Assembly: GCF_049671445.1 (NCBI RefSeq)
Contig: NZ_JBATUX010000021.1
Span: forward strand, 17,906-81,905
Reading direction: 5' to 3'
Origin: Paenisporosarcina sp.
GTDB lineage: Bacteria > Bacillota > Bacilli > Bacillales_A > Planococcaceae
DNA: 64,000 nt
Part shown: in pieces, positions 3,917 to 16,762 of the stretch
Layout: each line of letters starts with the position of its first letter
Position numbering within the stretch: position 1 is the stretch's first letter
Program-made: the position numbers and the translations under genes
Notes under the pieces: model-generated
Told to the model about the DNA's origin: nothing
Seen by the model: only the letters and a program-made list of their open reading frames with translations
Database searches by the model: none

Positions 3917-3953
3917 CTACTCAATCATTATCGTACAAAAAAAGAGACATCCA

Positions 3954-3960
3954 GATTTGA
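3954..3960. repeat. Left copy of the 7-bp direct repeat GATTTGA (target duplication or crossover core)
   Basis: Identical heptamer at 9967-9973. It is immediately outside the terminal inverted repeats. Confidence 0.8.
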
Positions 3961-3989
3961 TTAAGCCGTTCAGTTTTGAATCACTTTTC
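3961..3989 (+). repeat. Left terminal inverted repeat TTAAGCCGTTCAGTTTTGAATCACTTTTC
   Basis: Its reverse complement matches 9938-9966 at 28 of 29 positions. A further CCTAAATA match lies 11-12 nt further in (4001-4009 versus 9930-9937). Confidence 0.85.
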
Positions 3990-4004
3990 TTGAATTATAA
4001 CCCT

Positions 4005-4046
4005 AAATAGACACCCAATTAGCTAGTCAATTGGATGTCTATTTTT
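4005..4046 (+). terminator. Hairpin plus T-run inside the left end of the element
   Basis: AAATAGACACCCAATT / AGCTAGTC / AATTGGATGTCTATTT followed by TTTT. One mismatch in the stem. Confidence 0.6.
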
Positions 4047-4261
4047 TATTGATATATCAAGGTTTGTATAGATTTTACTCTTAATATAACCATCCCATTG
4101 ACAGGTCAATTATTGCTATTACAACTGTGATTGTAAATTGATTATTTCGGTGTCTAATTGGCGTGATAAAGGGGTGTGGAATTGAATTGTTGAAAAACAA
4201 CCAAATGAACTAAACAAGTAACCTGTAAACAGTAAAATGAATACTTGTGTTCAGAAAATAT

Positions 4262-4294
4262 AAAAAAACACTGATTAATTTCTCAGTGTTTTCT
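4262..4294 (-). terminator. Bidirectional intrinsic terminator downstream of the TPR gene
   Basis: A-run, AACACTGA / TTAATTTC / TCAGTGTT, then T-run. Confidence 0.6.
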
Positions 4295-4331
4295 GGTTGT
4301 AATTTTTAGTAAGCTTAATTTTCATCTACGC

Positions 4332-4362
4332 TTATTCAACTAAAGCACTCGTTAGTTAAAAA
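4332..4362 (+). repeat. Cassette-boundary site S1 (variant B): TTATTCAACTAA-AGCACTC-GTTAGTTAAAAA
   Basis: Member of the ...ACTAA(C)-N7-GTTAG... family. Located 11 nt beyond the TPR gene stop. Confidence 0.75.
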
Positions 4363-4372
4363 TGGTACTCAT

Positions 4373-4960
4373 TTAATTCTGTATGTTTTGTGCGAACTCT
4401 ATTGCTTGTTCAGTGGAATAAATTAAAGATGAATTACCTTTTGATTTTCTAAGCTCTAACGCTGCCTGAAAGCATTTTATTGCATCTTCTACTCTATTTA
4501 ATTCTAAGAGGCACTTACCTTTGTGCTGAAATGCAAAATCTAAGTATAAATTTTCATCCGTTTCCTCACATTTAATCAATGCCAGATTAAATTTCTCCAA
4601 TGCTTCTTCAAGTTTATTATCATATTTCAAAGCCTCTCCAAGACGAATTAAAGAGATGATTTCTCTTTTGTAGTGCTTTCCCTCGATTGCATACTTTAGG
4701 TTTATTTCTAAATAGTTAATTGCTGTTTTGGGCTTCCCATATATCCTATAAAGATTTCCTAGTGTTCCATAAAGAAAATACTTTTCCTCTTTATTAATTA
4801 AAGTATCTTCTTTTATTTGATCTAGAAATACTTCAGCTTTAATAATAAATTGTTTTAACTTCGAAAGATTTGATGATTTCTCGCGAAGATACTGATTTGA
4901 ATCAAAATAAATTATATCAGTAATTGAAGAAAGTTCTTCTCTCAACTCTTTGAAATCCAT
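4373..4960 (-). CDS. TPR-repeat protein
   Basis: ORF 4373-4993, start trimmed to ATG 4960 (AGGGGGA 5 nt upstream). Repeated 34-aa TPR-like units (...LGNLYRIYGKPKTAINYLE..., ...LGEALKYDNKLEEALEKFNLAL...). Confidence 0.78.
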   Translation of the reverse strand: MDFKELREELSSITDIIYFDSNQYLREKSSNLSKLKQFIIKAEVFLDQIKEDTLINKEEKYFLYGTLGNLYRIYGKPKTAINYLEINLKYAIEGKHYKREIISLIRLGEALKYDNKLEEALEKFNLALIKCEETDENLYLDFAFQHKGKCLLELNRVEDAIKCFQAALELRKSKGNSSLIYSTEQAIEFAQNIQN

Positions 4961-5030
4961 ACAAATCCCCCTATTCATAAAAACTCTGTTCATTTGTCGT
5001 CTAATTTATCTAACCAATCGATTAAATCAA

Positions 5031-5306
5031 TTATGTTTGAACTGGAGCAACACTCCAATTAATCTTATTTACACCTTTAACATTAATGTTGCCTAAACTC
5101 AAAATATGGGGAATATGTGCGAACATCCCAAATTTAACACCCTTTCTATGTTCTTCTGTGAAGTATGCTAATGTGTCTGATGGCAAAGCTGAACATTCTT
5201 GATATGAAATTATATCAATGATTTGAATTTCTTCATCAGGAATATCCGTAGCTGGACCTTTATAATTTTCTTTATTATAGAAATACACAGCATTTTTATT
5301 TTTCAT
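5031..5306 (-). CDS. Hypothetical protein. Possibly the C-terminal half of a split gene together with 5303-5566.
   Basis: 91-aa ORF. Its ATG overlaps the upstream stop in ATGA within an A-rich run. Confidence 0.5.
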   Translation of the reverse strand: MKNKNAVYFYNKENYKGPATDIPDEEIQIIDIISYQECSALPSDTLAYFTEEHRKGVKFGMFAHIPHILSLGNINVKGVNKINWSVAPVQT

Positions 5307-5566
5307 TCTTTTTTAATACTTACACCATGAGAATGTAAAGCTTCGTAAACATAGTAAGGGTGAAGGGGTAGTAAAAAAATTACATCATTCCATAGACAAT
5401 TTAATTTGGGGATGCTTTTCAATAATAAGCTCTCCCTTTCTGGATGGTCAAAATACTTTTTTGAGTAGGTTTTATAAAGTTCGGGATGCATCAATTTTAT
5501 CTCATTAAGAGAAATAAGAGCCTCTCCCGTCATTTTTTTAGACACCATATGATAAACGTAATCCAT
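5303..5566 (-). CDS. Hypothetical protein. Possibly the N-terminal half of a split gene.
   Basis: ORF 5303-5569, start placed at ATG 5566 (GGAGG 7 nt upstream). Confidence 0.55.
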   Translation of the reverse strand: MDYVYHMVSKKMTGEALISLNEIKLMHPELYKTYSKKYFDHPERESLLLKSIPKLNCLWNDVIFLLPLHPYYVYEALHSHGVSIKKE

Positions 5567-5780
5567 CAAATTTCCTCCTCATAAAAGGTTAATTCTTAAA
5601 AGGACGACTTCCTTAGTATCCTTTTATTCCCTTTTCACCACTCATATTACCTAGAAAAACAAATAAAAAACAGACTGATAATTTATGGAATAATATGCTA
5701 TAATTGAATTAACTTAGAAACAGAGAACCGCTAGAGAATGTAATTCTTCTCTAGCGGTTTTATAATGTTCTGCCAGTTTC

Positions 5781-5866
5781 TTATTGAACTAACCTGCCCC
5801 GTTAGTACAATAAGTTCAACAAAAAATGCGTTAATCCTTCTTGGATCAACGCACCCGTTAGTGAAA
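5781..5866 (+). repeat. Composite cassette-boundary site S2. It comprises the 13-7-13 palindrome (5781-5813), a second hairpin (5827-5853) and GCACCCGTTAGTG.
   Basis: TTATTGAACTAAC-CTGCCCC-GTTAGTACAATAA, then TGCGTTAATCC-TTCTT-GGATCAACGCA, then CCCGTTAGTG. Near-identical to 8285-8373. Confidence 0.85.
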
Positions 5867-5909
5867 TTTAATCCCAATAATTAAATACCAAATGAGTATA
5901 AACAAAACA

Positions 5910-6446
5910 TTATTTAACGCACTTATACATAAGAATATCATCTACATATTTATCTTCATCTATCTTATATTCTTTTATTAAACGTCCTTCCTCAATAAAA
6001 CCCACGCTTTTGTATAATGATATCGCTCTATGATTAGTGGCGAATACCCCTAAACTTACCTTTTCAATAAGAGGTTGTTTTTCAGCCCAATCCAGTAATG
6101 TTTGCAGAAGAATTTTCCCGATTCCAGCACCTCTATAGTCTCTACTTAAAGACATTGAAATTGAACCAGTATGAGATAATCTTTTTTTGTTATTAGATCG
6201 AAATACTATTGATCCTACAACGACATCATTAATTTCAGCAACAATTAAAGTTTCTTTATCATTATTTATTATCTTTTGAATTTGTTCCTTTTCTTGTTCA
6301 ATTGACATTTTTTCTAATTCCTCAGATACTACGATAAAATAATCTCCTTCAGAAATAACGGAAGCTGAAATTTCTATAAGTGCTTCAGCATCTTCTAATT
6401 CTACTGTTCGAATACTACATTTTTGATTGTTTATTATGTCTGACAT
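5910..6446 (-). CDS. GNAT-family N-acetyltransferase
   Basis: 178-aa ORF with an acetyl-CoA-binding motif-A-like segment (SRDYRGAGIGKILLQTLLDWA). GGGGGGA RBS. Confidence 0.88.
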   Translation of the reverse strand: MSDIINNQKCSIRTVELEDAEALIEISASVISEGDYFIVVSEELEKMSIEQEKEQIQKIINNDKETLIVAEINDVVVGSIVFRSNNKKRLSHTGSISMSLSRDYRGAGIGKILLQTLLDWAEKQPLIEKVSLGVFATNHRAISLYKSVGFIEEGRLIKEYKIDEDKYVDDILMYKCVK

Positions 6447-6498
6447 TTAAAATCCCCCCTGTCTATATTCAAAAAGAATTCCACAAACACATACCTAT

Positions 6499-6537
6499 AT
6501 CCTTCTTCAAGTAATGCACTCGTTAGTTGAATAAGAA
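6499..6537 (+). repeat. Cassette-boundary site S3 (right-half type): ATCCTTCTT...TGCACTCGTTAGTTGAATAAG
   Basis: Matches the second half of the composite sites S2 and S6. Its right arm is identical to that of S8. Confidence 0.7.
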
Positions 6538-6613
6538 AATAAAACATCAACTATCTACTTTATTTAAGTCTAGATTAAACAATCGTGTTAATAAATCATT
6601 AAATTCACCCTAT

Positions 6614-6901
6614 CTAAAACCTTTTAAAAAGTTTCCTTTGTTTCATATAATCAATAGCCTTAGTTTTATTCTTTTGTTTAGAAACATATATTGCTTCATT
6701 TATATCTCTATAATAGCTATTTAATCTTTCTTCTAGAAGAATACCAACAGATATTGCTTTTTTAACTGCACAGTTAGTCTCATTTGTATGAGTGCAGTCA
6801 GAAAACTTACAACTCGAAGATAATTCCAATATATCTTCATATTCATTACCTAATTTTTCTTCATAATCTACTATTTCAAACATCTTTTTATTAAACTTCA
6901 T
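6614..6901 (-). CDS. Stand-alone RsgA/YjeQ C-terminal zinc-finger fragment (95 aa)
   Basis: CKFSDCTHTNETNCAVKKAI matches the RsgA C-terminal C-x-F-x2-C-x-H-x5-C-A-V zinc motif. The OB and GTPase domains are absent. It has its own AGGGAG RBS. Confidence 0.6.
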   Translation of the reverse strand: MKFNKKMFEIVDYEEKLGNEYEDILELSSSCKFSDCTHTNETNCAVKKAISVGILLEERLNSYYRDINEAIYVSKQKNKTKAIDYMKQRKLFKRF

Positions 6902-6979
6902 TTTATAACTCCCTTTTTGTACTATGACTAACCTTCCTTTTTATTTGAAGAAGAAAAAGAGTGCCAATTCAACGCCACG

Positions 6980-7012
6980 ATCTTTAACTAACCTGCCGCG
7001 TTAGTAAAACTA
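6980..7012 (+). repeat. Cassette-boundary site S4: ATCTTTAACTAAC-CTGCCGC-GTTAGTAAAACTA
   Basis: 13-7-13 site, 65 nt upstream of the recombinase start. This is an attI-like position between the divergent recombinase and the leftward modules. Confidence 0.75.
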
Positions 7013-7076
7013 CTCATTATGTCTTTAATTCTATTAAGTTGGCAATAATTCCTTTAATCTTACATTTTTAGGAGGT

Positions 7077-7922
7077 ATGGAATTGTTACTGTCAAAAGCT
7101 TGGGCTTCGTTTGAAGCTGATAAACGAATAGAGGGTTTTTCATCGCAAACATTGAAGGCTTACCAGTTACAGACTTTGCTATTAATTGGTTATTTTAAGG
7201 ATGTAGAGATGGAATTACTGGATACAAATCAACTGAAAGAATATCTTGCTATATCGGGCAAGCATTTAAAACCAGCCAGTCTTGCACATCGTATCCGCTT
7301 TATGAAATCGTTTTTTCGTTGGTCTCATGAAGAAGGTTACCTGAAAAAGAATCCAACTTCCAAAATTAAAGAGCCCAAGGCTGGGAAGAGGATACCAAAG
7401 TATTTAACAGAACGAGAGATTGAACATCTGCGTGAATCCTGTCATTCCCCAATGGAAAAAGCGATTTTCGAATTCATGTTTTCTACAGGTTGTCGAATTG
7501 GAGAAATAGTTGCGTTAGAAAAGAACCATATTAATTGGTCCAATCAATCCGCGATCGTAAGAGGGAAAGGTGATAAGGAGAGGGAAGTTTATTTTAATAT
7601 ACGATGCGAGATATGGCTTAAACGCTATATCGAAAGCCGTGATGACAATAATCCTGCCATCTTTGTGACAGCAAGGCAACCACATAAAATGAGTGTCGCT
7701 CAAATGCGATACATCATCATGCGAATCTCAAATCGTGCTGAAATCAATAAAGAGATTCATCCACACCAACTTAGGCACAGCTATGCAACTCATTTGTTGA
7801 ATAATGGAGCTCCTATTGAGGTCATACAAAGTCTTATGGGGCATGAAAAAAGTGAAACCACAAGGATATATGCTCAATTAAGCGGAAGGTTAAGGAAAGA
7901 GTATTATCAGAAGTACTTTTAA
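7077..7922 (+). CDS. Xer-like tyrosine site-specific recombinase (281 aa)
   Basis: N-terminal SAM-like core-binding domain. The catalytic set is visible: R (STGCRIGEI), K (RGKGDKER), HxxR (HQLRHSYATH), H (LMGHEK) and Y (TRIYAQL). GGAGG at 7071-7075 favours a TTG start at 7083 as much as the ATG at 7077. Confidence 0.9.
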   Translation: MELLLSKAWASFEADKRIEGFSSQTLKAYQLQTLLLIGYFKDVEMELLDTNQLKEYLAISGKHLKPASLAHRIRFMKSFFRWSHEEGYLKKNPTSKIKEPKAGKRIPKYLTEREIEHLRESCHSPMEKAIFEFMFSTGCRIGEIVALEKNHINWSNQSAIVRGKGDKEREVYFNIRCEIWLKRYIESRDDNNPAIFVTARQPHKMSVAQMRYIIMRISNRAEINKEIHPHQLRHSYATHLLNNGAPIEVIQSLMGHEKSETTRIYAQLSGRLRKEYYQKYF

Positions 7923-7930
7923 ACGTAGAA

Positions 7931-7958
7931 GGAGCAACATCTTATAAGACGTTGCTCC
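7931..7958 (+). terminator. Hairpin after the recombinase gene
   Basis: GGAGCAAC / 12-nt loop / GTTGCTCC. The following T-run is weak. Confidence 0.45.
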
Positions 7959-7988
7959 ATTTGACTAAAGCACCCGTTAGCCATCCAT
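7958..7988 (+). repeat. Cassette-boundary site S5 (variant B): CCATTTGACTAA-AGCACCC-GTTAGCCATCC
   Basis: Shares ACTAAAGCAC(C/T)CGTTAG with S1. The arms pair poorly. Confidence 0.6.
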
Positions 7989-8073
7989 GTAGCTAAAATA
8001 ATAGCTACACCACAGATCATGAAAGAATATTACGTTCTTTCATGGGAGTTGAAGAAGAAATTTTATAGGTATA

Positions 8074-8259
8074 TTATTTTAAGTTTTTAGTCCTGCTCAA
8101 TATTTCTGAAACTCCTATTGCTATACTTGCATTAAGCATTGCGAATATAGAAATAATCATAGTTGTACCATCATATTCACCAATAAAATTCATTACAAAA
8201 AATATGAAACTAATGAAAAAAACAAGTATGCCAAAAACAAATAAAATTCTATCCAACAT
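8074..8259 (-). CDS. Small two-TM membrane protein
   Basis: ORF 8074-8265. Hydrophobic sequence (ILFVFGILVFFISFIFFVMNFI ... ISIFAMLNASIAIGV). AGGTG RBS. The start (ATG 8259 or TTG 8256) is uncertain. Confidence 0.5.
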   Translation of the reverse strand: MLDRILFVFGILVFFISFIFFVMNFIGEYDGTTMIISIFAMLNASIAIGVSEILSRTKNLK

Positions 8260-8284
8260 TATCACCTCATACCATATAATAATC

Positions 8285-8373
8285 TTTTTTCACTAACCTG
8301 CCCCGTTAGCAATAAGTTCAACAAAAAATGCGTTAACCCTTCTTGGATCAACGCACCCGTTAGTTTAATAAGG
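8285..8373 (+). repeat. Composite cassette-boundary site S6 (same architecture as S2)
   Basis: TTTTTTCACTAAC-CTGCCCC-GTTAGCAATAAGT, then TGCGTTAACCC-TTCTT-GGATCAACGCA, then CCCGTTAGTTTAATAAGG. Confidence 0.85.
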
Positions 8374-8454
8374 AAATTGTTAGAACTATAACATTGTTCT
8401 TTTAAATACGCATACCTAGTCTCAAAAACGCAAATTGCTTAAGTTATAAGACAA

Positions 8455-9117
8455 TTAACTTTTTTGTGAAAACCAGTTTAGAGTTGTTTTATTATCGCAA
8501 ATGGTCGCTTCCCAATTCATCCTTCTTATAATTCCAGCGATATTATCATCTTTTGTTAAGAATAACGTGGTATAGGCATCATATTCACTTATAAAGGCAA
8601 ACTCGAGTTTATCATCCATGAGCATAAATTCCGCTGGTGTTAAATCAGACATCTCTTCTAATTTTATTTCCTCTATTTTTAACCTTCCTTTTTCGCCTTC
8701 AAGCGGTGCAGAGTATAATACAAAATCAGCTCCTTTGGATCCAAGTACATTCACGATATCATTCAGTAAAAAAACCGAAATTTTGTCTTCCCTCGGATAA
8801 TAAAAATCGGAATTAAAGCATGTGCGAAGTTGATTCGTTAAGTCAGGTCTCTTATCTCGATGATCGTGTACTGCTATTCCGACCTCTTGCAAGGTTAAGT
8901 CGCTTTGCTGACTGATTTGATTCCACGAAACTGGTTTACCAATGTTTAATATTTCTTCGTCGCTTGGGTAGATGTGTTGAAAAGGTCTTTCCCGTTTCCT
9001 TTTTTGCCACCCATTAGGCATTTGGACAAATGGATGAAGCAGAAAAGCTGCTGATTTAAAGTGATTCGATATTTGGCTTAAAATAGGTGAAACATCTAAC
9101 TGTATATATTCCAGCAT
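8455..9117 (-). CDS. Hypothetical cytoplasmic protein (220 aa)
   Basis: Long ORF with a good RBS (AAAGGAG, 8-nt spacing). I recognise no motif. Confidence 0.72.
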   Translation of the reverse strand: MLEYIQLDVSPILSQISNHFKSAAFLLHPFVQMPNGWQKRKRERPFQHIYPSDEEILNIGKPVSWNQISQQSDLTLQEVGIAVHDHRDKRPDLTNQLRTCFNSDFYYPREDKISVFLLNDIVNVLGSKGADFVLYSAPLEGEKGRLKIEEIKLEEMSDLTPAEFMLMDDKLEFAFISEYDAYTTLFLTKDDNIAGIIRRMNWEATICDNKTTLNWFSQKS

Positions 9118-9141
9118 GTAAATTCTCCTTTAAAATGTTTT

Positions 9142-9174
9142 TTGTTCAACTAACCTGCCCCGTTAGTAGAACAA
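9142..9174 (+). repeat. Cassette-boundary site S7: TTGTTCAACTAAC-CTGCCCC-GTTAGTAGAACAA
   Basis: 13-bp arms with a single A:A mismatch at arm position 7 and a 7-nt spacer. Located 8 nt after the stop of 9183-9686 and 24 nt before the start of 8455-9117. Confidence 0.9.
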
Positions 9175-9182
9175 GGTTTAAA

Positions 9183-9686
9183 TTATCCCTGACGTAATAT
9201 CTTTTGAAACATTCTCGGTTGATGTTTTTCAAAACCTTTTATCAATTCTTTTCCAAAAATAGTGATGGTCTCTTCCCAAGGGTGTCCTAAAAATCCCCAT
9301 TCAAAATTCTTTTGAATAAAAAAGTAATAATCACCGTTAGGAAAAACAGGTACAATCCATTCATCAAACTCACTTTTCTGAAACTCCAAACGGGGGTTTA
9401 TCCAATAACCTGGATGCTGCCAATCTACCGCATACATACATTCATTCTTCTGTGTGAGTTCTTGAAAAACAAGCAATGACTTATCCTCTAGGTCATTATA
9501 AATCTCATTATAAGTACCTGAATCTCCGGACCAACTTATATATGAGGATATATCATATGTGATAAATGGATTTGGAACTTCAAAAGATGGGAAATTTGAT
9601 ATGCTTGGTTCAAAATTAAATTCATCATATATCCTATCCCATACCTCTTTATATTCTAATGCGGATAATTCAATCCAATTTTCCAT
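9183..9686 (-). CDS. Hypothetical protein (about 167 aa), Trp/Phe-rich. It resembles small immunity-type proteins of Bacilli (weak recollection only).
   Basis: ORF 9183-9698, start trimmed to ATG 9686 (GGTGG 8 nt upstream). Confidence 0.7.
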   Translation of the reverse strand: MENWIELSALEYKEVWDRIYDEFNFEPSISNFPSFEVPNPFITYDISSYISWSGDSGTYNEIYNDLEDKSLLVFQELTQKNECMYAVDWQHPGYWINPRLEFQKSEFDEWIVPVFPNGDYYFFIQKNFEWGFLGHPWEETITIFGKELIKGFEKHQPRMFQKILRQG

Positions 9687-9734
9687 TTGAATAGCCACCT
9701 TTACGATGCTTTTATTGGGGTTATTATATTATTG

Positions 9735-9770
9735 CTTGTTCAACTAAACTGCCTCGTTAGTTGAATAAGG
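9735..9770 (+). repeat. Cassette-boundary site S8: CTTGTTCAACTAA-ACTGCCTC-GTTAGTTGAATAAGG
   Basis: Last member of the site family. Its right arm is the exact complement of the S1 left arm. Confidence 0.85.
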
Positions 9771-9937
9771 AAATCTCTTATATTTATTTTATTATACCAA
9801 GAATATCCATTTTTACCTCTAAAAATTTAAAATTTTCTATTATTTATAAAAGCACCTCGAAAAGAGGTGCTAATTCGGGTTATATTTGGCTGTTTATTTT
9901 GTTAATAAAACAGGCTTGATTTGACCGTTTATTTAGG

Positions 9938-9966
9938 GAAAAGTGACTCAAAACTGAACGGCTTAA
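9938..9966 (-). repeat. Right terminal inverted repeat GAAAAGTGACTCAAAACTGAACGGCTTAA
   Basis: Reverse complement of 3961-3989 with one mismatch. Confidence 0.85.
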
Positions 9967-9973
9967 GATTTGA
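9967..9973. repeat. Right copy of the 7-bp direct repeat GATTTGA
   Basis: Identical to 3954-3960. Followed by TGGATGTCTTTTGTTTT, the right arm and T-run of the split terminator. Confidence 0.8.
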
Positions 9974-10017
9974 TGGATGTCTTTTGTTTTGGAGATTTTT
10001 AGAGAGACTGTTGTATG

Positions 10018-10143
10018 CTATGAGCGGTTTTGTGTCGACTATGAGCGCATTCCTGTCGACTATCGGCGCAAAAGACATGGCTATCGGCGAATCTTTGTCG
10101 TCTATCGGCGGTTCTCTGTCGTCTATGAGCGGTTTAACAAAAA
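10018..10143. repeat. 21-bp tandem repeat array, family b (6 units, CTAT(G/C)(A/G)GCG-N7-GTCG(A/T))
   Basis: Units in perfect 21-bp register: CTATGAGCGGTTTTGTGTCGA, CTATGAGCGCATTCCTGTCGA, CTATCGGCGCAAAAGACATGG, CTATCGGCGAATCTTTGTCGT, CTATCGGCGGTTCTCTGTCGT, CTATGAGCGGTTTAACAAAAA. Confidence 0.9.
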
Positions 10144-11933: not shown

Positions 11934-12172
11934 TTATGCTTTTACTAACTCTAATACGCGATCTGGATCAAATCCTAAAACCCATTGACCATTAATGTTT
12001 GTTTGTGGAACACCCATTTGACCAGTTGTTTCCACTAGTTTTTGTGCAGCTATAGCATCAGCCTGCACATTCACTTCTGTGTAAGCAAGTTCATTTTGTT
12101 GCAAGAAAGATTTCATCATGTCGCAATACGGACACGTGTTAGTTGAGTAAACAGTAATTTGTGGTTTCATTT
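11934..12172 (-). CDS. Glutaredoxin-like protein (NrdH/YruB type)
   Basis: ORF 11934-12296, trimmed to ATG 12172 (GGAGG 8 nt upstream). The long form would overlap the upstream gene. CPYC motif in MKPQITVYSTNTCPYCDM. Confidence 0.8.
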
Positions 12173-12187
12173 TCAATTCCTCCATTT

Positions 12188-13564
12188 TTATGCTTTTTTG
12201 TATGCAGCGTAACCGCCAGCAAGATGCTTTACATTTTTGTATCCAAGAGATTTTAATACACTCGCACCAATTGCAGATCGAGCGCCACCTTGACAATGCA
12301 TTAATACTGGCGTTTCTTTTGGCAAATCAAGGTCACGAAGTTTCCCTAAAAAGTGATGATGGGCTCCTTCAATGTGACCTTCTTTCCATTCAGTATCATT
12401 TCGTACATCCATCACATATGAAGTTGAAATTTCGTCTTTAAATTCATCAACTGACAATGTTTCGTATGACGTTAAGTTCATTTCATTCAATACAGATGGA
12501 TCAACAAACGATTTAATGTTATCTAAATGGATCGATTGAAGTGAGCGAACGATTTCTTCTCGTTGTGCTTCTTCCGCTATAATACCCATTTGTTCATCAT
12601 AGCTCACCAACCAACCAGCCCAGTTAGTGAATGCTTTGTTAAATGGAATGTTAATGGCACCAGGCAGAAGACTGTTCTCCACTAAATTCGCAGGACGAGT
12701 ATCCAAAATGAAAACTTGCTCAGTCTGCATTTCAGTTTCTAACTCCTCTTTGTTTTGAATTGTTGGAATTACTTTGTCTTCTAATAAAGCTGGTCCCATT
12801 TTATTCACTTTTTTCATTTCCGCAAAGTACACAGGTGCTTCAGGTTGATCTTTCAATAATTCATCAACAAATGCTTGTTCATTATCTTCTTTCATTGCCC
12901 AGTTAAATTGTTTTTCATAACCAACAGTTGAAGAAGGAACAGCTCCTAAAGATTTCCCACACGCTGAACCTGCACCATGTCCAGGCCACACCATCATATA
13001 ATCAGGTAGTTCTTTGAATGTTTGAATGGAATTGAACATTGCACGTGCACCCTTTTCGGCAGTATCTGCAACGCCAGCTGCTTTTTCCAATAAATCAGGT
13101 CGGCCAACATCGCCAACAAAAACGAAGTCTCCCGTAAATATCCCCATTGGTGTTGTTGCGCCGCTGCCACGGTCCGTTAATACGAATGAAATACTTTCAG
13201 GCGTATGCCCAGGTGTATGCAACACTTTAAAGTCGATGTTTCCTATTGAAAAAGTTGAACCGTCTTTAACCATTTCAACATTTAGACCATTTGTATATTG
13301 ATATTTCCAATCATCATCGCCTTCGTCAGACAAATACAATGTTACACCCAAATCATGAGCTAGTTGACGAGAGCCTGAAACGAAGTCAGCATGAATATGA
13401 GTTTCTGTTGCTGCCGAAATGTGCAAGCCTTCCTTTTTTGCAACTTGGATAACGTCAGAAGTATCACGTGCTGGGTCAATAACAATAGCTTCACCAGTTC
13501 GTTGACAACCTATTAAATACGAATATTGTGCTAATTTTTCATCAAAGAATGAGCGAAAATACAT
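12188..13564 (-). CDS. cstB: Metallo-beta-lactamase-fold persulfide dioxygenase fused to rhodanese domains (CstB-like)
   Basis: 458 aa. THIHADFVSG metal motif in the N-terminal MBL domain. C-terminal rhodanese with the active-site loop HCQGGARS. Confidence 0.82.
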   Translation of the reverse strand: MYFRSFFDEKLAQYSYLIGCQRTGEAIVIDPARDTSDVIQVAKKEGLHISAATETHIHADFVSGSRQLAHDLGVTLYLSDEGDDDWKYQYTNGLNVEMVKDGSTFSIGNIDFKVLHTPGHTPESISFVLTDRGSGATTPMGIFTGDFVFVGDVGRPDLLEKAAGVADTAEKGARAMFNSIQTFKELPDYMMVWPGHGAGSACGKSLGAVPSSTVGYEKQFNWAMKEDNEQAFVDELLKDQPEAPVYFAEMKKVNKMGPALLEDKVIPTIQNKEELETEMQTEQVFILDTRPANLVENSLLPGAINIPFNKAFTNWAGWLVSYDEQMGIIAEEAQREEIVRSLQSIHLDNIKSFVDPSVLNEMNLTSYETLSVDEFKDEISTSYVMDVRNDTEWKEGHIEGAHHHFLGKLRDLDLPKETPVLMHCQGGARSAIGASVLKSLGYKNVKHLAGGYAAYKKA

Positions 13565-13607
13565 ATAAGTTCCCTCCAGTTTTTAAAATCGTTTTTCTAT
13601 ATTTATA

Positions 13608-13627
13608 ATATACCACTAGGGGTATAT
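13608..13627. promoter_or_regulatory. CsoR/CstR-type operator overlapping the cstB promoter
   Basis: ATATACC-ACTAGG-GGTATAT palindrome. On the minus strand it sits in the 17-nt spacer between TTGAAC (-35) and TATATT (-10). Confidence 0.55.
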
Positions 13628-13823
13628 TTGTTCAAGTAATTTGTTTTACATATAACTTATTATTTCCCTAAATCATTTTTTTAACGCAAAATTGGTTCTA
13701 AGTGAGTCAATTTCAAAATTGCCTTTTGATGGATGATACACGAATATTTAAATTGTAATCCTAAGTTTATGGACTCAGAAAAACAAAAAAACGCCTCTAC
13801 ACATATGTGTAAAGACGTTTCGT

Positions 13824-14069
13824 TTAATCTTCTTGTTTTTTGCCGCGTTTCATCATAAGAGTAGCGTACCAAAATCCAATAGTTAAGGACAAGGCATCGA
13901 CGATGTATAACAACCAAGTATGCGTGTATCCGGCATATACGGAAGCTGTAATAAGAGCGACAGTTAAAATCAACGCTACAATATGTGAGAACGTAATGCG
14001 TGTAAATAAGACAACGAGCAAGCCCGGTAAAAACAAAGCTAATATAATTTTCGTAACCATAGATTCCAT
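13824..14069 (-). CDS. Small membrane protein (81 aa, three predicted TM helices)
   Basis: Hydrophobic ORF, preferred over the overlapping antisense ORF 13840-14097. Confidence 0.55.
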   Translation of the reverse strand: MESMVTKIILALFLPGLLVVLFTRITFSHIVALILTVALITASVYAGYTHTWLLYIVDALSLTIGFWYATLMMKRGKKQED

Positions 14070-14079
14070 ATATGTTCTC

Positions 14080-15249
14080 CTATCTTACGACCAATAAACC
14101 GAGACGATGGTGGTCGTGACGATAAATAACATGTTGGCGTAAACGTACTTCTCCTTGATGATCGAGAACTTCAAGTCGACAATGTGCGGCGTTTATCTGA
14201 ATCGCCTCATATAATTCTCTTTCGTTTGAAACAGATTGTCCATTTACTTTGCGAATACATTCGCCAATGACAAGACCCATCTTTTCAGCTGGTGAATCTG
14301 GCAAGACTCCTGCAATCATGACACCTAAATCTTTAGGTGCAACAGCGTGGTTGCCTTGTCGTTCTTTGATCGCAAAGTACATCCATACCCCAACTCGTGC
14401 AATTGCACCGATAGCTAAACTAATAGCCGCCATCACTGGGAACCAAAATGCACTGATTGATAAAATCACAGTCAGGAAACCAACAGCTACAACAGACATT
14501 CCTAGTTTTGGGAATAAATTTACTGGTAGTGAACGGCGAGCTTTTTGTTGGAATCCAATGACAATTGGGAATAATACCAAACCAAATGATTCACTTCCAA
14601 ATGTTAATTGAGGCCAGTATGGTGAAAACTCTTGAATAGCATCTCCTGGTACAATTACGAGTAATGGAATCATCCATAGTCGCTTGGCTAAATAGCTTGC
14701 TGCCGTTAGCCCACGAGAAGATTTCTCTAAAATTGGTGAAGCTGATTCTGCACCCGTTTTACTGATGAGTAGACCTTCTACAATGACCGTTGCACCGATA
14801 ATGAAGGCAACAGGCAATGATAATTGAATCCAATTCATTTCTCCCGACCAATCAAAATTCATAAATGAAAATGTGCGGTTCATTACATAGCCAATCCACA
14901 ATGCTGCGACAGCTAGTGCACCTGCTACAATGGGTGAACCCAATTGATACATGAAAAGCACTACTAGTATGGCACTAATGATACTATACGTTGCAATCCA
15001 ATCTGTCGTTACGGTTAAACCAATACCTACACTAAGTATCGATAATATAACTGCATACATCCAGATGTCCGCAAACATTCGCTTCATTTCAGTCCAACCC
15101 CATAAAATGCGCGTTCGAAAAGAACGTCTTTCTCTTTTCACACGGACATATCCGAGGAGTACTGCGAAAAGAATCGCAACGTAAAATAATGGATTGATAA
15201 ACAATTTACTAATTCCTTTTAACAACTCTAATCCTATCTCTTGCCACAT
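14080..15249 (-). CDS. minJ: MinJ-like polytopic membrane protein with C-terminal PDZ domain
   Basis: ORF 14080-15294, start trimmed to ATG 15249. Multi-TM N-terminal region plus a C-terminal PDZ (GVLPDSPAEKMGLVIGECIRKVNGQSV). Synteny next to ctpB as in B. subtilis. Confidence 0.7.
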   Translation of the reverse strand: MWQEIGLELLKGISKLFINPLFYVAILFAVLLGYVRVKRERRSFRTRILWGWTEMKRMFADIWMYAVILSILSVGIGLTVTTDWIATYSIISAILVVLFMYQLGSPIVAGALAVAALWIGYVMNRTFSFMNFDWSGEMNWIQLSLPVAFIIGATVIVEGLLISKTGAESASPILEKSSRGLTAASYLAKRLWMIPLLVIVPGDAIQEFSPYWPQLTFGSESFGLVLFPIVIGFQQKARRSLPVNLFPKLGMSVVAVGFLTVILSISAFWFPVMAAISLAIGAIARVGVWMYFAIKERQGNHAVAPKDLGVMIAGVLPDSPAEKMGLVIGECIRKVNGQSVSNERELYEAIQINAAHCRLEVLDHQGEVRLRQHVIYRHDHHRLGLLVVR

Positions 15250-15331
15250 AAAACCTAACACCACCCATTCAACGGTTCGTGCATTTCTTTCCATTGTAAC
15301 AAACCGTTGATGGAATGCGTATAGGTTTTTT

Positions 15332-16762
15332 CTACTTTTGAATAGAGTGGAACAAATAACCTAATGACTTTTGCAGTTGATCGTCGTTTTTCTTGCTTGT
15401 TTTATACTTTAATATCGACTCTCTAGCTGCTTGATAAAACTCTGTATTCATGATGGAATCGTTTTGAAGTTTCTTTTCTTTTTTGAAAGCTAACACAGCT
15501 TTTGCCGTATCTTCATCGAAATATCCGTTTACTTTAGTAATAGGATACCCTAATGCCTTTAACGCTTTTTGTCCATAAATGATATCTTCATGAAAATCTC
15601 CTACTTGATAAGTACCACTTATAGGCAACGGCTCTAGTTGGTAAAGCTCATTTGCTTCAACTTCAAAATCAGCTTCTATTCCTTTACCATGTATCCACTG
15701 TTGTTTAGGAGTTAACCATTTATGTGAGGAAAGCTTCATTTCTCCTCCATTAGTCAGTTCCCATGTTTCCTGGACAGTCCCCTTGCCAAAGCTCTTAGAG
15801 CCAGCAATGAGTGCACGTTGATTTGACTTTAATGCCCCACTTAAAACTTCACTTGCCGAAGCACTACCTTCGTTTTGTAACAATACAATTGGAATCTTTT
15901 TCATTTCTTTTGCGTAGTCATCATCATTCGTTGCTTTTACAGGTAATGGTTCAAGTACACCTTTCGCATCTTGCATATAAGCGTAAATTTGGCCGTTCTT
16001 CAACATGGTACCGATAATTTGTTCTACACTATGTAAATACCCTCCTGGGTTACCACGAACATCAATCAATAAACCATCGATTCCTTGTTTAACTAAAGTG
16101 CGTGTTTGTTGTTCCCATTCTTCAGCAGTTTTATCACCAAAAAGTGAAATGCTGACATAGCCAATAGAAGAATCATCTTGCTTGATGCGCTCACTTGTAA
16201 CTGTGTGTATTTGTAGTGCTGATCTCATCATACTTAATTCCATATGTCGATCTTCAGTTGGTCTAAAGACAGTTAAAGATACATTGGTTCCTTTCTTACC
16301 TTTAATGGCTTTAAGCAAATCAGATAAACTTTTACCATCTACACGTTCCCCATCTACTTGTACAATTTCGTCATACGGTTTAACGCCAGCTTTTTCAGCT
16401 GGAGATTCTTTTAAAGGCGTTACGACAATAAAACGTCCTTTATTTTCAACAATTTCTAAACCAATACCCACGCGCTCGTCCGATAGTGATTCGCGATGCG
16501 ATTTCGCTTCTTCTTTTGTCATGTATTTACTGTAAGGATCACCAAGTGTTTCAGCCATTCCTCGAAGAGCACCTTCAATCAAAAGTTTCCCTTCTACCGG
16601 ATGGACTGAGCTGGCTAAAATCCGTTCATAGGCTTCATCAATAGGTGACATAGGACTTGTCGCATTACTTGTCTTATCTTTTTTTAACGGTGTCCAAAAA
16701 ATGAGCAAACAAAGAATCAAAATAACTAAAAAAGCAAACAAAAAAACCCGGCTTCTTTTCAA
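15332..16762 (-). CDS. ctpB: S41 carboxy-terminal processing protease (CtpA/CtpB-like) with PDZ and C-terminal PG-binding domain
   Basis: 476 aa. Signal/TM anchor, PDZ (SPAEKAGVKPYDEIVQVDG), catalytic Ser region (NEGSASASEVLSGAL) and a PG_binding_1-like tail. Confidence 0.88.
   Translation of the reverse strand: MKRSRVFLFAFLVILILCLLIFWTPLKKDKTSNATSPMSPIDEAYERILASSVHPVEGKLLIEGALRGMAETLGDPYSKYMTKEEAKSHRESLSDERVGIGLEIVENKGRFIVVTPLKESPAEKAGVKPYDEIVQVDGERVDGKSLSDLLKAIKGKKGTNVSLTVFRPTEDRHMELSMMRSALQIHTVTSERIKQDDSSIGYVSISLFGDKTAEEWEQQTRTLVKQGIDGLLIDVRGNPGGYLHSVEQIIGTMLKNGQIYAYMQDAKGVLEPLPVKATNDDDYAKEMKKIPIVLLQNEGSASASEVLSGALKSNQRALIAGSKSFGKGTVQETWELTNGGEMKLSSHKWLTPKQQWIHGKGIEADFEVEANELYQLEPLPISGTYQVGDFHEDIIYGQKALKALGYPITKVNGYFDEDTAKAVLAFKKEKKLQNDSIMNTEFYQAARESILKYKTSKKNDDQLQKSLGYLFHSIQK

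Follow-up and report, generated by a model that had tools for sequence, protein, structure and literature searches.

A cassette array with a Xer-type recombinase and terminal inverted repeats in the loop of a Paenisporosarcina terminator

Introduction

Class 1 integrons travel on defective derivatives of Tn402 from which the transposition genes are missing, and an integron carried by such a defective Tn402-type transposon is the closest functional counterpart of the element described here: a 6.0-kb segment at positions 3961-9966 of a 64,000-nucleotide stretch of DNA from Paenisporosarcina sp. (assembly GCF_049671445.1, contig NZ_JBATUX010000021.1, positions 17,906 to 81,905 of the forward strand), which was analyzed at its full length and is called the window below. 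In the type of its sites, the element is closest to the Xer-dependent pdif modules, whose sites stand in alternating inverted orientation and are served by the host's XerC and XerD, and which have no dedicated recombinase gene, terminal inverted repeats (TIRs) or target-site duplication (TSD). In form, a small relative of it on a plasmid is closest to mobile insertion cassettes (MICs) and miniature inverted-repeat transposable elements (MITEs), for example MIC231 of Bacillus cereus, which are non-autonomous TIR elements moved in trans. Terminator-like or attC-like stem-loops are the insertion sites of group IIC introns, IS1111-attC elements, and the IS200/IS605 elements; their enzymes are a reverse transcriptase that works together with an intron RNA, a DEDD transposase directed by a guide RNA, or an HUH enzyme, and we know of none among them that leaves TIRs together with a 7-bp duplication.

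Among TIR-bearing elements with tyrosine recombinases, the closest are the SE elements of Vibrio, which are about 7 kb in size and have imperfect 19-bp TIRs, a 6-bp spacer by the ends, and no DDE transposase; they encode two recombinases and two other conserved genes, enter targets without inverted-repeat structure, and are flanked by one donor-derived and one target-derived 6-mer, with no duplication (PMC9345347). Integrons themselves are nearly absent from the Firmicutes, an absence that is unexplained, and a single complete integron was reported from that phylum by IntegronFinder 2.0 (PMC9024848).

The element in the window is a new combination within the recombinase-driven gene-cassette platforms. 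It is almost certainly a discrete mobile insertion of a family of cassette arrays, a family that is bounded by inverted repeats, carries a Xer-type recombinase and no recognizable transposase, and is widespread in Bacillales. As an overall explanation, we favor, if by a modest balance, that 3961-9966 is a compact and apparently intact member of this mobile family whose recombinase would exchange the cassettes and, most likely, also move the whole unit. The initial annotation, made from the letters of the window, had called the combination undescribed, and the full-text literature that we searched held no prior description of the arrays, the termini, or the two combined; most subscription journals lie outside that literature, and an earlier description is possible.

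The Element and Its Empty Target Site

The segment is bounded by TIRs of 29 nt, at 3961-3989 (plus strand, TTAAGCCGTTCAGTTTTGAATCACTTTTC) and 9938-9966 (minus strand), that are complementary at 28 of 29 positions, and the heptamer GATTTGA stands flush against both tips, at 3954-3960 and 9967-9973. The left junction reads ...ACAAAAAAAGAGACATCCA, GATTTGA, TTAAGCCGTTCAGTTTTGAATCACTTTTC, and the right one GAAAAGTGACTCAAAACTGAACGGCTTAA, GATTTGA, TGGATGTCTTTTGTTTT; past an indel of 11 nt, the TIR arms go on with CCCTAAATA. Even with up to three mismatches allowed, no copy of the 29-mer beyond these two exists in the 64 kb, shuffles giving an expectation of 0, and a TIR pair is obtained in 0 of 100 shuffles. 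The DNA on the two sides of the element belongs to a single structure: an A-run and the stem arm AGACATCCA on the left (3936-3953) are complementary to the stem arm TGGATGTCT and a T-run on the right (9974-9991), and deleting 3961-9973 leaves a 12-bp stem with a 7-nt loop, flanked by the A-run on one side and the T-run on the other. When folded as DNA, this reconstructed site reaches -12 kcal/mol, a value equaled by 0 of 200 shuffles (z = -4.7). The target is a bidirectional Rho-independent terminator between an M20 amidohydrolase gene and a TauE gene, and GATTTGA is its loop. The TIRs, the repeat, the split hairpin, and the AT-richness of the inserted DNA (about 30% GC inside vs. about 40% outside) had all been noted in the initial annotation and were all present when the sequence was examined again.

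The site without the element is found in a related Paenisporosarcina metagenome contig (ENA ERZ27237543; locus L095), where an amidohydrolase 95% identical to that of the window is followed by the same TauE gene and the spacer between the two is the same as in the window, a block of 21-nt repeats included. At 2194-2218 of this locus, AGACATCCA-GATTTGA-TGGATGTCT runs unbroken, with no insertion and one GATTTGA (2203-2209), and the left and right halves of the terminator are contiguous (2186-2218); over 2186-2220 (...CAAAAAAAAGAGACATCCA-GATTTGA-TGGATGTCTTT...), the alignment to both window flanks is nearly base for base. Because this empty site is uninterrupted and holds a single GATTTGA, the 6.0 kb are an insertion and the 7-mer is derived from the target. 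The initial annotation had taken the locus for a hairpin whose loop received a discrete insertion, and had proposed contiguous flanks in a relative as the test, and here the predicted sequence exists. That the pattern arose by chance similarity or faulty assembly, with no real insertion behind it, can be given practically no weight: nothing specific speaks for it other than the restriction of the exact TIR to this genome, whereas the shuffles give no TIR pair, both junctions recur in an independent Logan assembly (L001, L002), the empty site refutes it, and the same architecture is seen in three other genera.

Between the TIRs, ten sites of two types separate every gene; all of them lie on the plus strand, and none occurs elsewhere in the 64 kb. 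Type A sites are imperfect 13-7-13 palindromes (consensus CTTnTTCAACTAAC CTGCnnC GTTAGTTnAAnAAG), and type B sites have an arm-6-arm layout (AACTAAn GCACCC GTTAGTT). The cassette open reading frames (ORFs) are all on the minus strand (8 of 8) and the recombinase gene, encoding 281 amino acids (7077-7922), is on the plus strand. Pfam recognizes TPR, GNAT, DUF2711, and DUF2716 proteins and one Phage_integrase protein; a transposase domain was found in no ORF of the element with either Pfam or NCBIfam, which bears out the earlier statement that no transposase ORF is present. Of the interior, the initial annotation had seen the cassette cargo but missed both the ordered array of ten sites and the membership in a large family.

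Other relatives of the host locus were also compared. The M20 amidohydrolase of the window is 93% identical to that of P. macmurdoensis, and the locus of this species (L081) was rejected as an empty site, as it is rearranged and its hairpin is similar but non-orthologous; two further relatives (L082 and L083, 93% identity) have a different, shorter spacer, with neither the 21-nt repeat block nor the target hairpin. In the window, tandem repeats of this kind form blocks at 1950-2195 and 10018-10134 (units, e.g., CAGGTTGACGAAGTGGCTCTC and CTATCGGCGAATCTCTGTCGT), one of which adjoins the target hairpin. The second of these blocks recurs, inverted and with 86% identity, at 7446-7573 of the P. macmurdoensis locus, which lacks TauE; there it lies against an intact hairpin of similar form (GGACATCCA-CTGAAGC-TGGATGTCC). 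The empty-site contig also has 15 additional bases right after the hairpin (2219-2233; TTTAACAATTCAGAT) that are missing from the window at 9983, an indel that adjoins the insertion site.

Complete Relatives in Other Genera

A blind search for pairs of TIRs and direct repeats with loose thresholds returned mostly noise and runs of N, and the pair was then required to bracket a recombinase gene. The bracketing search gave two further elements, and a plasmid search with the terminus gave a third. The first, in Bacillus sp. FJAT-27245 (locus L076, 6678-14620), is 7943 bp long, with the direct repeat GATGACT and the termini GTAACGGGTTCGGTTCTGAAATACAAAA and TTAACGGGTTCGGTTTTTGAGTACAAAAA; the second, in Metabacillus malikii (L028, 8207-11505), is 3299 bp long, with the direct repeat TATATGG and a more divergent TIR that starts nTAAGTAGTT. 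The third, on the megaplasmid of Pontibacillus sp. ALD_SL1 (NZ_CP062975.1, 571335-572950; L093, 20001-21616), measures 1616 bp, has a perfect 27-nt TIR and the direct repeat CTTCTGT in the target AAAAACCCGCAAC-TTCT-GTTGCGGTTTTTT, and contains three B sites and two small unknown ORFs and no recombinase gene. This plasmid was the only record matched in the plasmid search and has seven terminus-like places.

In each of the four cases, the reconstructed empty site is a terminator-like hairpin that carries the repeat at its apex or close to it. The four perfect 7-mers, GATTTGA and those given above, are unrelated to one another, as are the target stems; the hairpin target and the 7-bp repeat recur among related ends, which the initial annotation had proposed to search for. 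Among the six end pairs examined, the flanking 7-mers are identical in four and agree at six of seven positions in a fifth, and more than 13 further single termini in other loci adjoin an A-run and a GC-rich stem of unrelated sequence. The TIRs conserved in the family extend over about 30-45 bp (terminus consensus nTAACGGGTTCnGTTTTGAGTACAAAA; element ends nTAACGGGTTCnGTTTTGAG), and the left TIR of the window is in register with the consensus from its tip. A hidden Markov model (HMM) of the terminus, built without the window, places the two tips of the window element second and fourth in the 64 kb, both in register from the tip. A closer variant of the window TIR is found in Chungangia (L020).

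Every site of the Bacillus and Metabacillus loci falls between the termini, and no Pfam transposase domain was found in either element; the DDE-type insertion sequence (IS) or transposon, autonomous by virtue of a transposase between its TIRs, has no counterpart there or in the window element. The only protein common to the three recombinase-bearing elements is the recombinase. Their cargo is otherwise diverse: the Bacillus element encodes an ApeA-type HEPN defense protein, Imm8 (a polymorphic-toxin immunity family), DinB, a cupin, and a zeta-toxin-like kinase, and the Metabacillus element carries FolD (8605-9444) on the recombinase strand. Judged from these comparisons, whole units have evidently entered the apices of terminators with duplication of a 7-nt loop, in the window and, at unrelated terminators, in its relatives. 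As the plasmid element has no recombinase gene, the moving function evidently acts in trans.

A Family of Cassette Arrays

A genome scan with the recombinase as query, using one genome per species, confirmed relatives in Bacillaceae and Planococcaceae, at 541 or more genomic loci and with more than one copy in several genomes, and further homologues were found on 20 plasmids. At E <= 1e-20 there are 1103 homologues, and the best 120 of them, 72-94% identical, come from Paenisporosarcina, Psychrobacillus, Sporosarcina, Lysinibacillus, Viridibacillus, Neobacillus, Peribacillus, Metabacillus, and others. We fetched 78 loci for site statistics, and in the 76 that have sites, 917 sites lie on the strand of the recombinase gene vs. 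12 on the opposite one; among the ORFs of at least 120 aa inside the arrays, 384 are antiparallel to the recombinase gene vs. 81 parallel. The A and B sites reach as far as 10 kb or more to either side of the gene. A module of 1 kb that consists of an A site, the recombinase gene, and a B site (window 6981-7980) is 70-96% identical between genera, and its flanks are unrelated.

The arrays have exchanged parts at these sites. The DUF2716 cassette of the window (9145-9769) is 94.7% identical to a segment that occupies another place in its array in P. macmurdoensis (L003, 1814-2437), and the homology between the two arrays breaks at sites; more generally, of 120 blocks that are common to more than one locus and do not contain the recombinase gene, 91 end within 30 nt of a site, vs. 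12.7 expected at random. The exchanged pieces are evidently of cassette size and delimited by A and B sites, and the cassettes are, on this comparative evidence, the units of exchange between arrays. The recombinase probably shuffles them: directly repeated sites of one type would recombine (A x A, B x B), so that cassettes leave as circles and are inserted anew, and the two spacer classes would probably prevent recombination of A with B, the recombinase gene having one site of each class as its flanks. An array on the plasmid pSP10-266k of Sporosarcina psychrophila (L094), whose recombinase is 94% identical to that of the window, holds a NUDIX-merA-merR block between a B and an A site (12109-14845), an adaptive multi-gene "cassette" on a plasmid.

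Much of this recalls integrons. In both, a tyrosine recombinase gene stands beside co-oriented, mostly single-gene cassettes and short imperfect palindromes with CTAAC/GTTAG-like boxes; the same cassettes turn up in the arrays of different genomes; and the arrays reside on chromosomes and plasmids, in one case of our family with mer genes. The platform within a TIR-bounded unit with a short target duplication is likewise reminiscent of class 1 integrons in Tn402 derivatives. The two systems also attract the same guests. The only recurrent mobile-element proteins besides the recombinase, among ORFs of at least 120 aa in 80 loci, are DEDD transposases of the IS110 type, seen in 22 loci, and reverse transcriptases of group II introns, seen in 14; neither occurs in the elements of the window, Metabacillus, Bacillus, and Pontibacillus. 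The attC sites of integrons likewise attract IS110/IS1111-type elements and group II introns. Examples of such ORFs in our family are found at 4021-5349 of locus L039 and at 14998-16200 of the Sporosarcina plasmid locus.

The Recombinase and the Nature of Its Sites

A true integron in a Firmicute, with IntI, attI, and attC cassettes, is nevertheless a very improbable reading of the array. The co-oriented cassettes antiparallel to a tyrosine recombinase gene would suit it, the CTAAC...GTTAG boxes recall the R''/R' boxes, composite A...B units have an attC-like length, and one homologue carries the NCBI name "site-specific tyrosine recombinase/integron integrase." The protein itself, however, is of the simple two-domain Xer-type architecture, with Phage_integrase and a SAM-like N-terminal domain in Pfam, and among 25 homologues, R140, K164/K167, H230, H256, and Y265 are invariant and R233 is conserved in at least 90%. 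Its best family match is NF040815 XerA (archaeal-type; 219.9 bits, the cut-off being 220), followed by XerD and XerC, and the closest PDB structures are those of XerA (4a8e, 5hxy) and XerD (1a0p); the initial annotation had rightly taken this sole recombinase for a Xer-like one. The integron-integrase models score far below their cut-offs, TIGR02249 with a split match of 88.5 bits (cut-off 265) and PRK15417 with 53.5 (cut-off 435), and IntI4 (2a3v) aligns over 69 C-terminal residues only. By these scores, the recombinase is not an integrase of the IntI type, which is marked by a specific additional domain.

The sites argue in the same direction. Across 78 distinct composite A...B sites, neither A-left/B-right nor A-right/B-left arms covary, pairing at variable columns being what independent columns would give, and no covariation of the arms was found within single sites (223 A sites and 232 B sites). 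Because the arms do not covary, they look like protein-binding half-sites, and from their sequence, the A and B sites look like simple double-stranded sites rather than folded, attC-like substrates. Integrons also differ from the family in geometry: our sites are short arm-7-arm and arm-6-arm sequences of two spacer classes that give no hint of pairing in a folded strand, and the recombinase gene stands within the array, an A site on one side and a B site on the other, with cassettes in both directions from it. No attI-like unique site turned up in the window element, where attI and Pc had no dedicated test. With a recombinase that is Xer/XerA-like and sites without attC-type covariation, the system is therefore not an integron, though its way of working seems similar, and it differs from the Tn402-borne ones in that its TIRs are the platform family's own and not even a remnant of a transposition module is present.

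The pdif and dif modules of Acinetobacter plasmids agree with the family in having genes or small groups of genes between short Xer-type arm-6/7-arm sites in varied contexts and in the use of a Xer-type recombinase. They differ from it in that our sites are direct repeats, the family's own recombinase travels along, and the array is a bounded, transposon-like unit. From the integrative mobile elements exploiting Xer recombination (IMEX), as from pdif modules, the family is set apart by its target, an intergenic terminator loop, and by its own recombinase; the dif likeness was judged by eye against the B. subtilis dif sequence.

Movement of the Whole Element

The weakest step of the proposed mechanism is the movement of the unit as a whole, which would begin with a 7-nt staggered break at the apex of a hairpin or cruciform and be completed by gap filling, a course of events that agrees with the data. 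Because the recombinase is the only protein that the elements share, it is the likeliest moving enzyme, supplied in cis or in trans; we assign this role to it tentatively, with somewhat less than even confidence. In favor of it may be a parallel in sequence: each terminus consists of 7 nt followed by GTT(C)nGTT, similar to the "spacer + GTTAGTT arm" of the internal sites, and the type A spacers are also 7 nt long.

A different role for the same enzyme had been proposed in the initial annotation, in which a circular 29-7-29 form recombines with the arm-7-arm hairpin by ordinary site-specific integration and GATTTGA is the shared core, in the manner of lox, FRT, or dif. The geometry is attractive, as the target and the joined ends are both arm-7-arm and type A spacers have 7 nt, the loop of the empty site is exactly GATTTGA, and the only enzyme aboard is a tyrosine recombinase. 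We nonetheless regard it as improbable. Related TIRs sit in four unrelated 7-mers and in unrelated stems, whereas a fixed core would limit each element to 1 in 16384 loops; were homology not required, the junctions should differ as they do in SE elements, and they match; and the target arms (ACATCCA) and the TIR tips (GGCTTAA) are unlike each other and unlike the arms of the sites that accompany the recombinase (AACTAAC). A fixed att core fits poorly because the direct repeats behave like target-site duplications. The coupling sequences of Tn916- and SE-type elements, with their differing flanks, are not found either, the flanks being identical in most of the end pairs, and SE elements are further distinguished from the family by their two recombinases, a target without a hairpin, and the lack of an internal cassette array.

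Perfect duplication of 7 bp, seen in four elements with a different, unrelated sequence in each, is also the classic signature of staggered cleavage and repair, and it speaks for an alternative in which the element is a non-autonomous, MIC- or MITE-like transposon moved by an unlinked transposase, DDE or other, with the recombinase and the array as passengers. TIRs, a TSD of fixed length and variable sequence, passenger genes, and the lack of a transposase gene are shared with MICs and MITEs, and the 1.6-kb Pontibacillus element, which has no recombinase gene and yet has perfect TIRs and a direct repeat, fits that description; no recombinase homologue at E <= 1e-60 is reported on its plasmid, despite the seven terminus-like places, and the TIRs are without clear likeness to the arms of A and B sites. 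We consider this alternative unlikely, though to be taken seriously. All TIR-bounded units seen consist of A and B sites and cassettes only, the sites of those loci being confined within the TIRs, and the family TIRs come always with such sites and usually with the Xer-like recombinase; the three recombinase-bearing elements have no transposase domain; and the IS110-type DEDD and group II intron proteins of the 80 loci make no TIRs with a 7-bp TSD. Neither an autonomous, transposase-encoding partner for these ends nor an IS family that combines a 7-bp TSD, nTAA termini, and targeting of terminator apices is known to us, and the targeting and the TSD length set the family apart from MICs and MITEs. 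With the ends of dif-like, Tn3-, Tn7-, and IS66-type elements, only a "GTAA" start seems to be common, in the case of IS66, whose TSD is 8 bp. Of the hairpin-seeking elements, none of the characteristic enzymes is encoded in the window element. Short MITE-like pairs of ends, unrelated to the interior, had been named in the initial annotation as a finding that would refute its reading, and this came half true: the recombinase-less element exists, but its interior still has the same sites and cassettes.

Returning to the explanation that we favor, with the recombinase as the likeliest mover, several observations weigh against it. We know of no tyrosine recombinase that leaves perfect target duplications. 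Classical strand exchange gives one donor-derived and one target-derived coupling sequence, as in SE elements (PMC9345347). The likeness of GTT(C)nGTT to GTTAGTT is weak, and the HMMs of A and B sites do not match the window TIRs. As the recombinase-less plasmid element shows action in trans, the mover could be any unlinked enzyme, and the mechanistic steps are all deduced from sequence. Individual loci are also at odds with a simple picture: the two ends of L018 (7531 and 17662) lie in two different terminators, and L077 has three termini (3850, 11196, and 18986), one pair of which has a direct repeat matching at six of seven positions. The unmatched flanks of these loci would agree with elements that adjoin or nest, or with arrays that have recombined, and in L018 the mismatch could come from recombination between two arrays. 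For the Metabacillus element, the TIR alignment score of 13 is within the noise of the scan, and the support comes mainly from context. Finally, the exact window TIR was found nowhere in 78 related loci, plasmids, or viral contigs, and because it is found nowhere else, recent activity of the window copy is unproven; eight metagenome matches to a 19-mer of the TIR stop at its ends, appear to be chance, and, we think, fall in a putative response-regulator "KPFSF" coding sequence.

The full proposition is that of a self-contained, Gram-positive analogue of the integron, in which a Xer-type recombinase without a partner transposase both shuffles cassettes between double-stranded sites of two classes and transposes the TIR-bounded array into terminator apices with a 7-bp duplication. 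We regard it as less likely than not, and likewise see a substantial, if less than even, chance that the whole-element movement is a new activity of tyrosine recombinases; structure-targeted, TSD-generating transposition is, to our knowledge, not a reaction of these enzymes. A further observation bears on how arrays may grow: at 15640-15710 of locus L033, a terminus lies in a terminator (AAAAAGCTG...) directly after the A site of another array, which suggests that elements can nest by entering composite-site terminators.

Cassette Platforms outside Integrons

With at least several hundred genomic loci and copies on plasmids, the family looks like an independent and widespread solution, in Bacillaceae and Planococcaceae, to the same problem that integrons solve: a platform for cassettes whose enzyme is of the Xer type and whose sites are simple and double-stranded. 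Among its cargo are genes for defense and immunity (ApeA-HEPN, Imm8) and for mercury resistance, along with many unknown ones. How an array is founded at a new locus is seen from the window copy and its empty site, where a bounded unit enters a terminator loop, and this position puts new genes between transcription units and leaves coding sequences intact. If it is true that the recombinase moves the whole element, this would be a new transposition chemistry and a possible compact tool for structure-targeted insertion; if it is not the mover, a trans-acting transposase that recognizes hairpin apices is yet to be found.

Order of Sites and Cassettes in the Window Element

Scans for other features gave little: nothing relevant in Rfam, a single weak PADLOC match among the cassettes (the TPR protein), and 24 predicted promoters vs. 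29 +/- 6.5 in shuffles, with no enrichment. Inside the left TIR, a subterminal non-coding region (3990-4330) with no ORF of at least 50 aa and no match in related loci or plasmids contains a hairpin (4010-4043), the motif CAATTAGCT (4016-4024), and a terminator (4263-4294); a AATTAGCA motif is found at equal distance from the tip in L076, L018, and L033. The hairpin is terminator-like (TAGACACCCAATT-AGCTAGTC-AATTGGATGTCTA, then a T-run; 4010-4047) and repeats the target-arm sequence TGGATGTCT; each target arm has one copy of this 9-mer, and with the one in the hairpin the window has three, a number attained by 4 of 100 shuffles. The internal copy, at 4032, was considered as an alternative att core and rejected, as the junctions of TIRs and direct repeats are exact and the empty site agrees with them.

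The array starts with a B site (AACTAA AGCACTC GTTAGTT; 4331-4360), a TPR protein of 206 aa (4373-4993), and two overlapping small ORFs of 91 and 88 aa without family match (5031-5569). At two places, a composite site follows, in which an A site, the intrinsic terminator of a minus-strand gene, and a B site succeed one another. The first of these (5777-5870; A 5777-5814, terminator 5824-5856, B 5837-5870) represents a unit of about 85 nt that is conserved across many genera, and precedes a GNAT acetyltransferase of 178 aa (5910-6446) and a B site (6501-6535). The next cassette ORF, of 95 aa (6614-6901), matches only the C-terminal zinc-finger end of RsgA (residues 185-244 of 247 in TIGR00157, E = 2.8e-10) and is a gene fragment of this ribosome-biogenesis GTPase packaged as a cassette. 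The recombinase gene has an A site (6978-7013), part of the conserved 1-kb module, directly on its upstream side and, beyond its own terminator (7931-7958), a B site (7957-7986) directly on its downstream side. On the far side of the module are a hydrophobic ORF of 63 aa (8074-8265), the second composite site (8281-8373; A 8281-8316, terminator 8326-8358, B 8338-8373), and the DUF2711 ORF (220 aa; 8455-9117), followed by an A site with the 13-7-13 palindrome (9141-9177), the DUF2716 ORF (171 aa; 9183-9698), and the last A site of the array (9731-9770). The right subterminal region (9771-9937) is non-coding, with hairpins, and on its reverse complement, CCCTAAATA extends the TIR past the indel.

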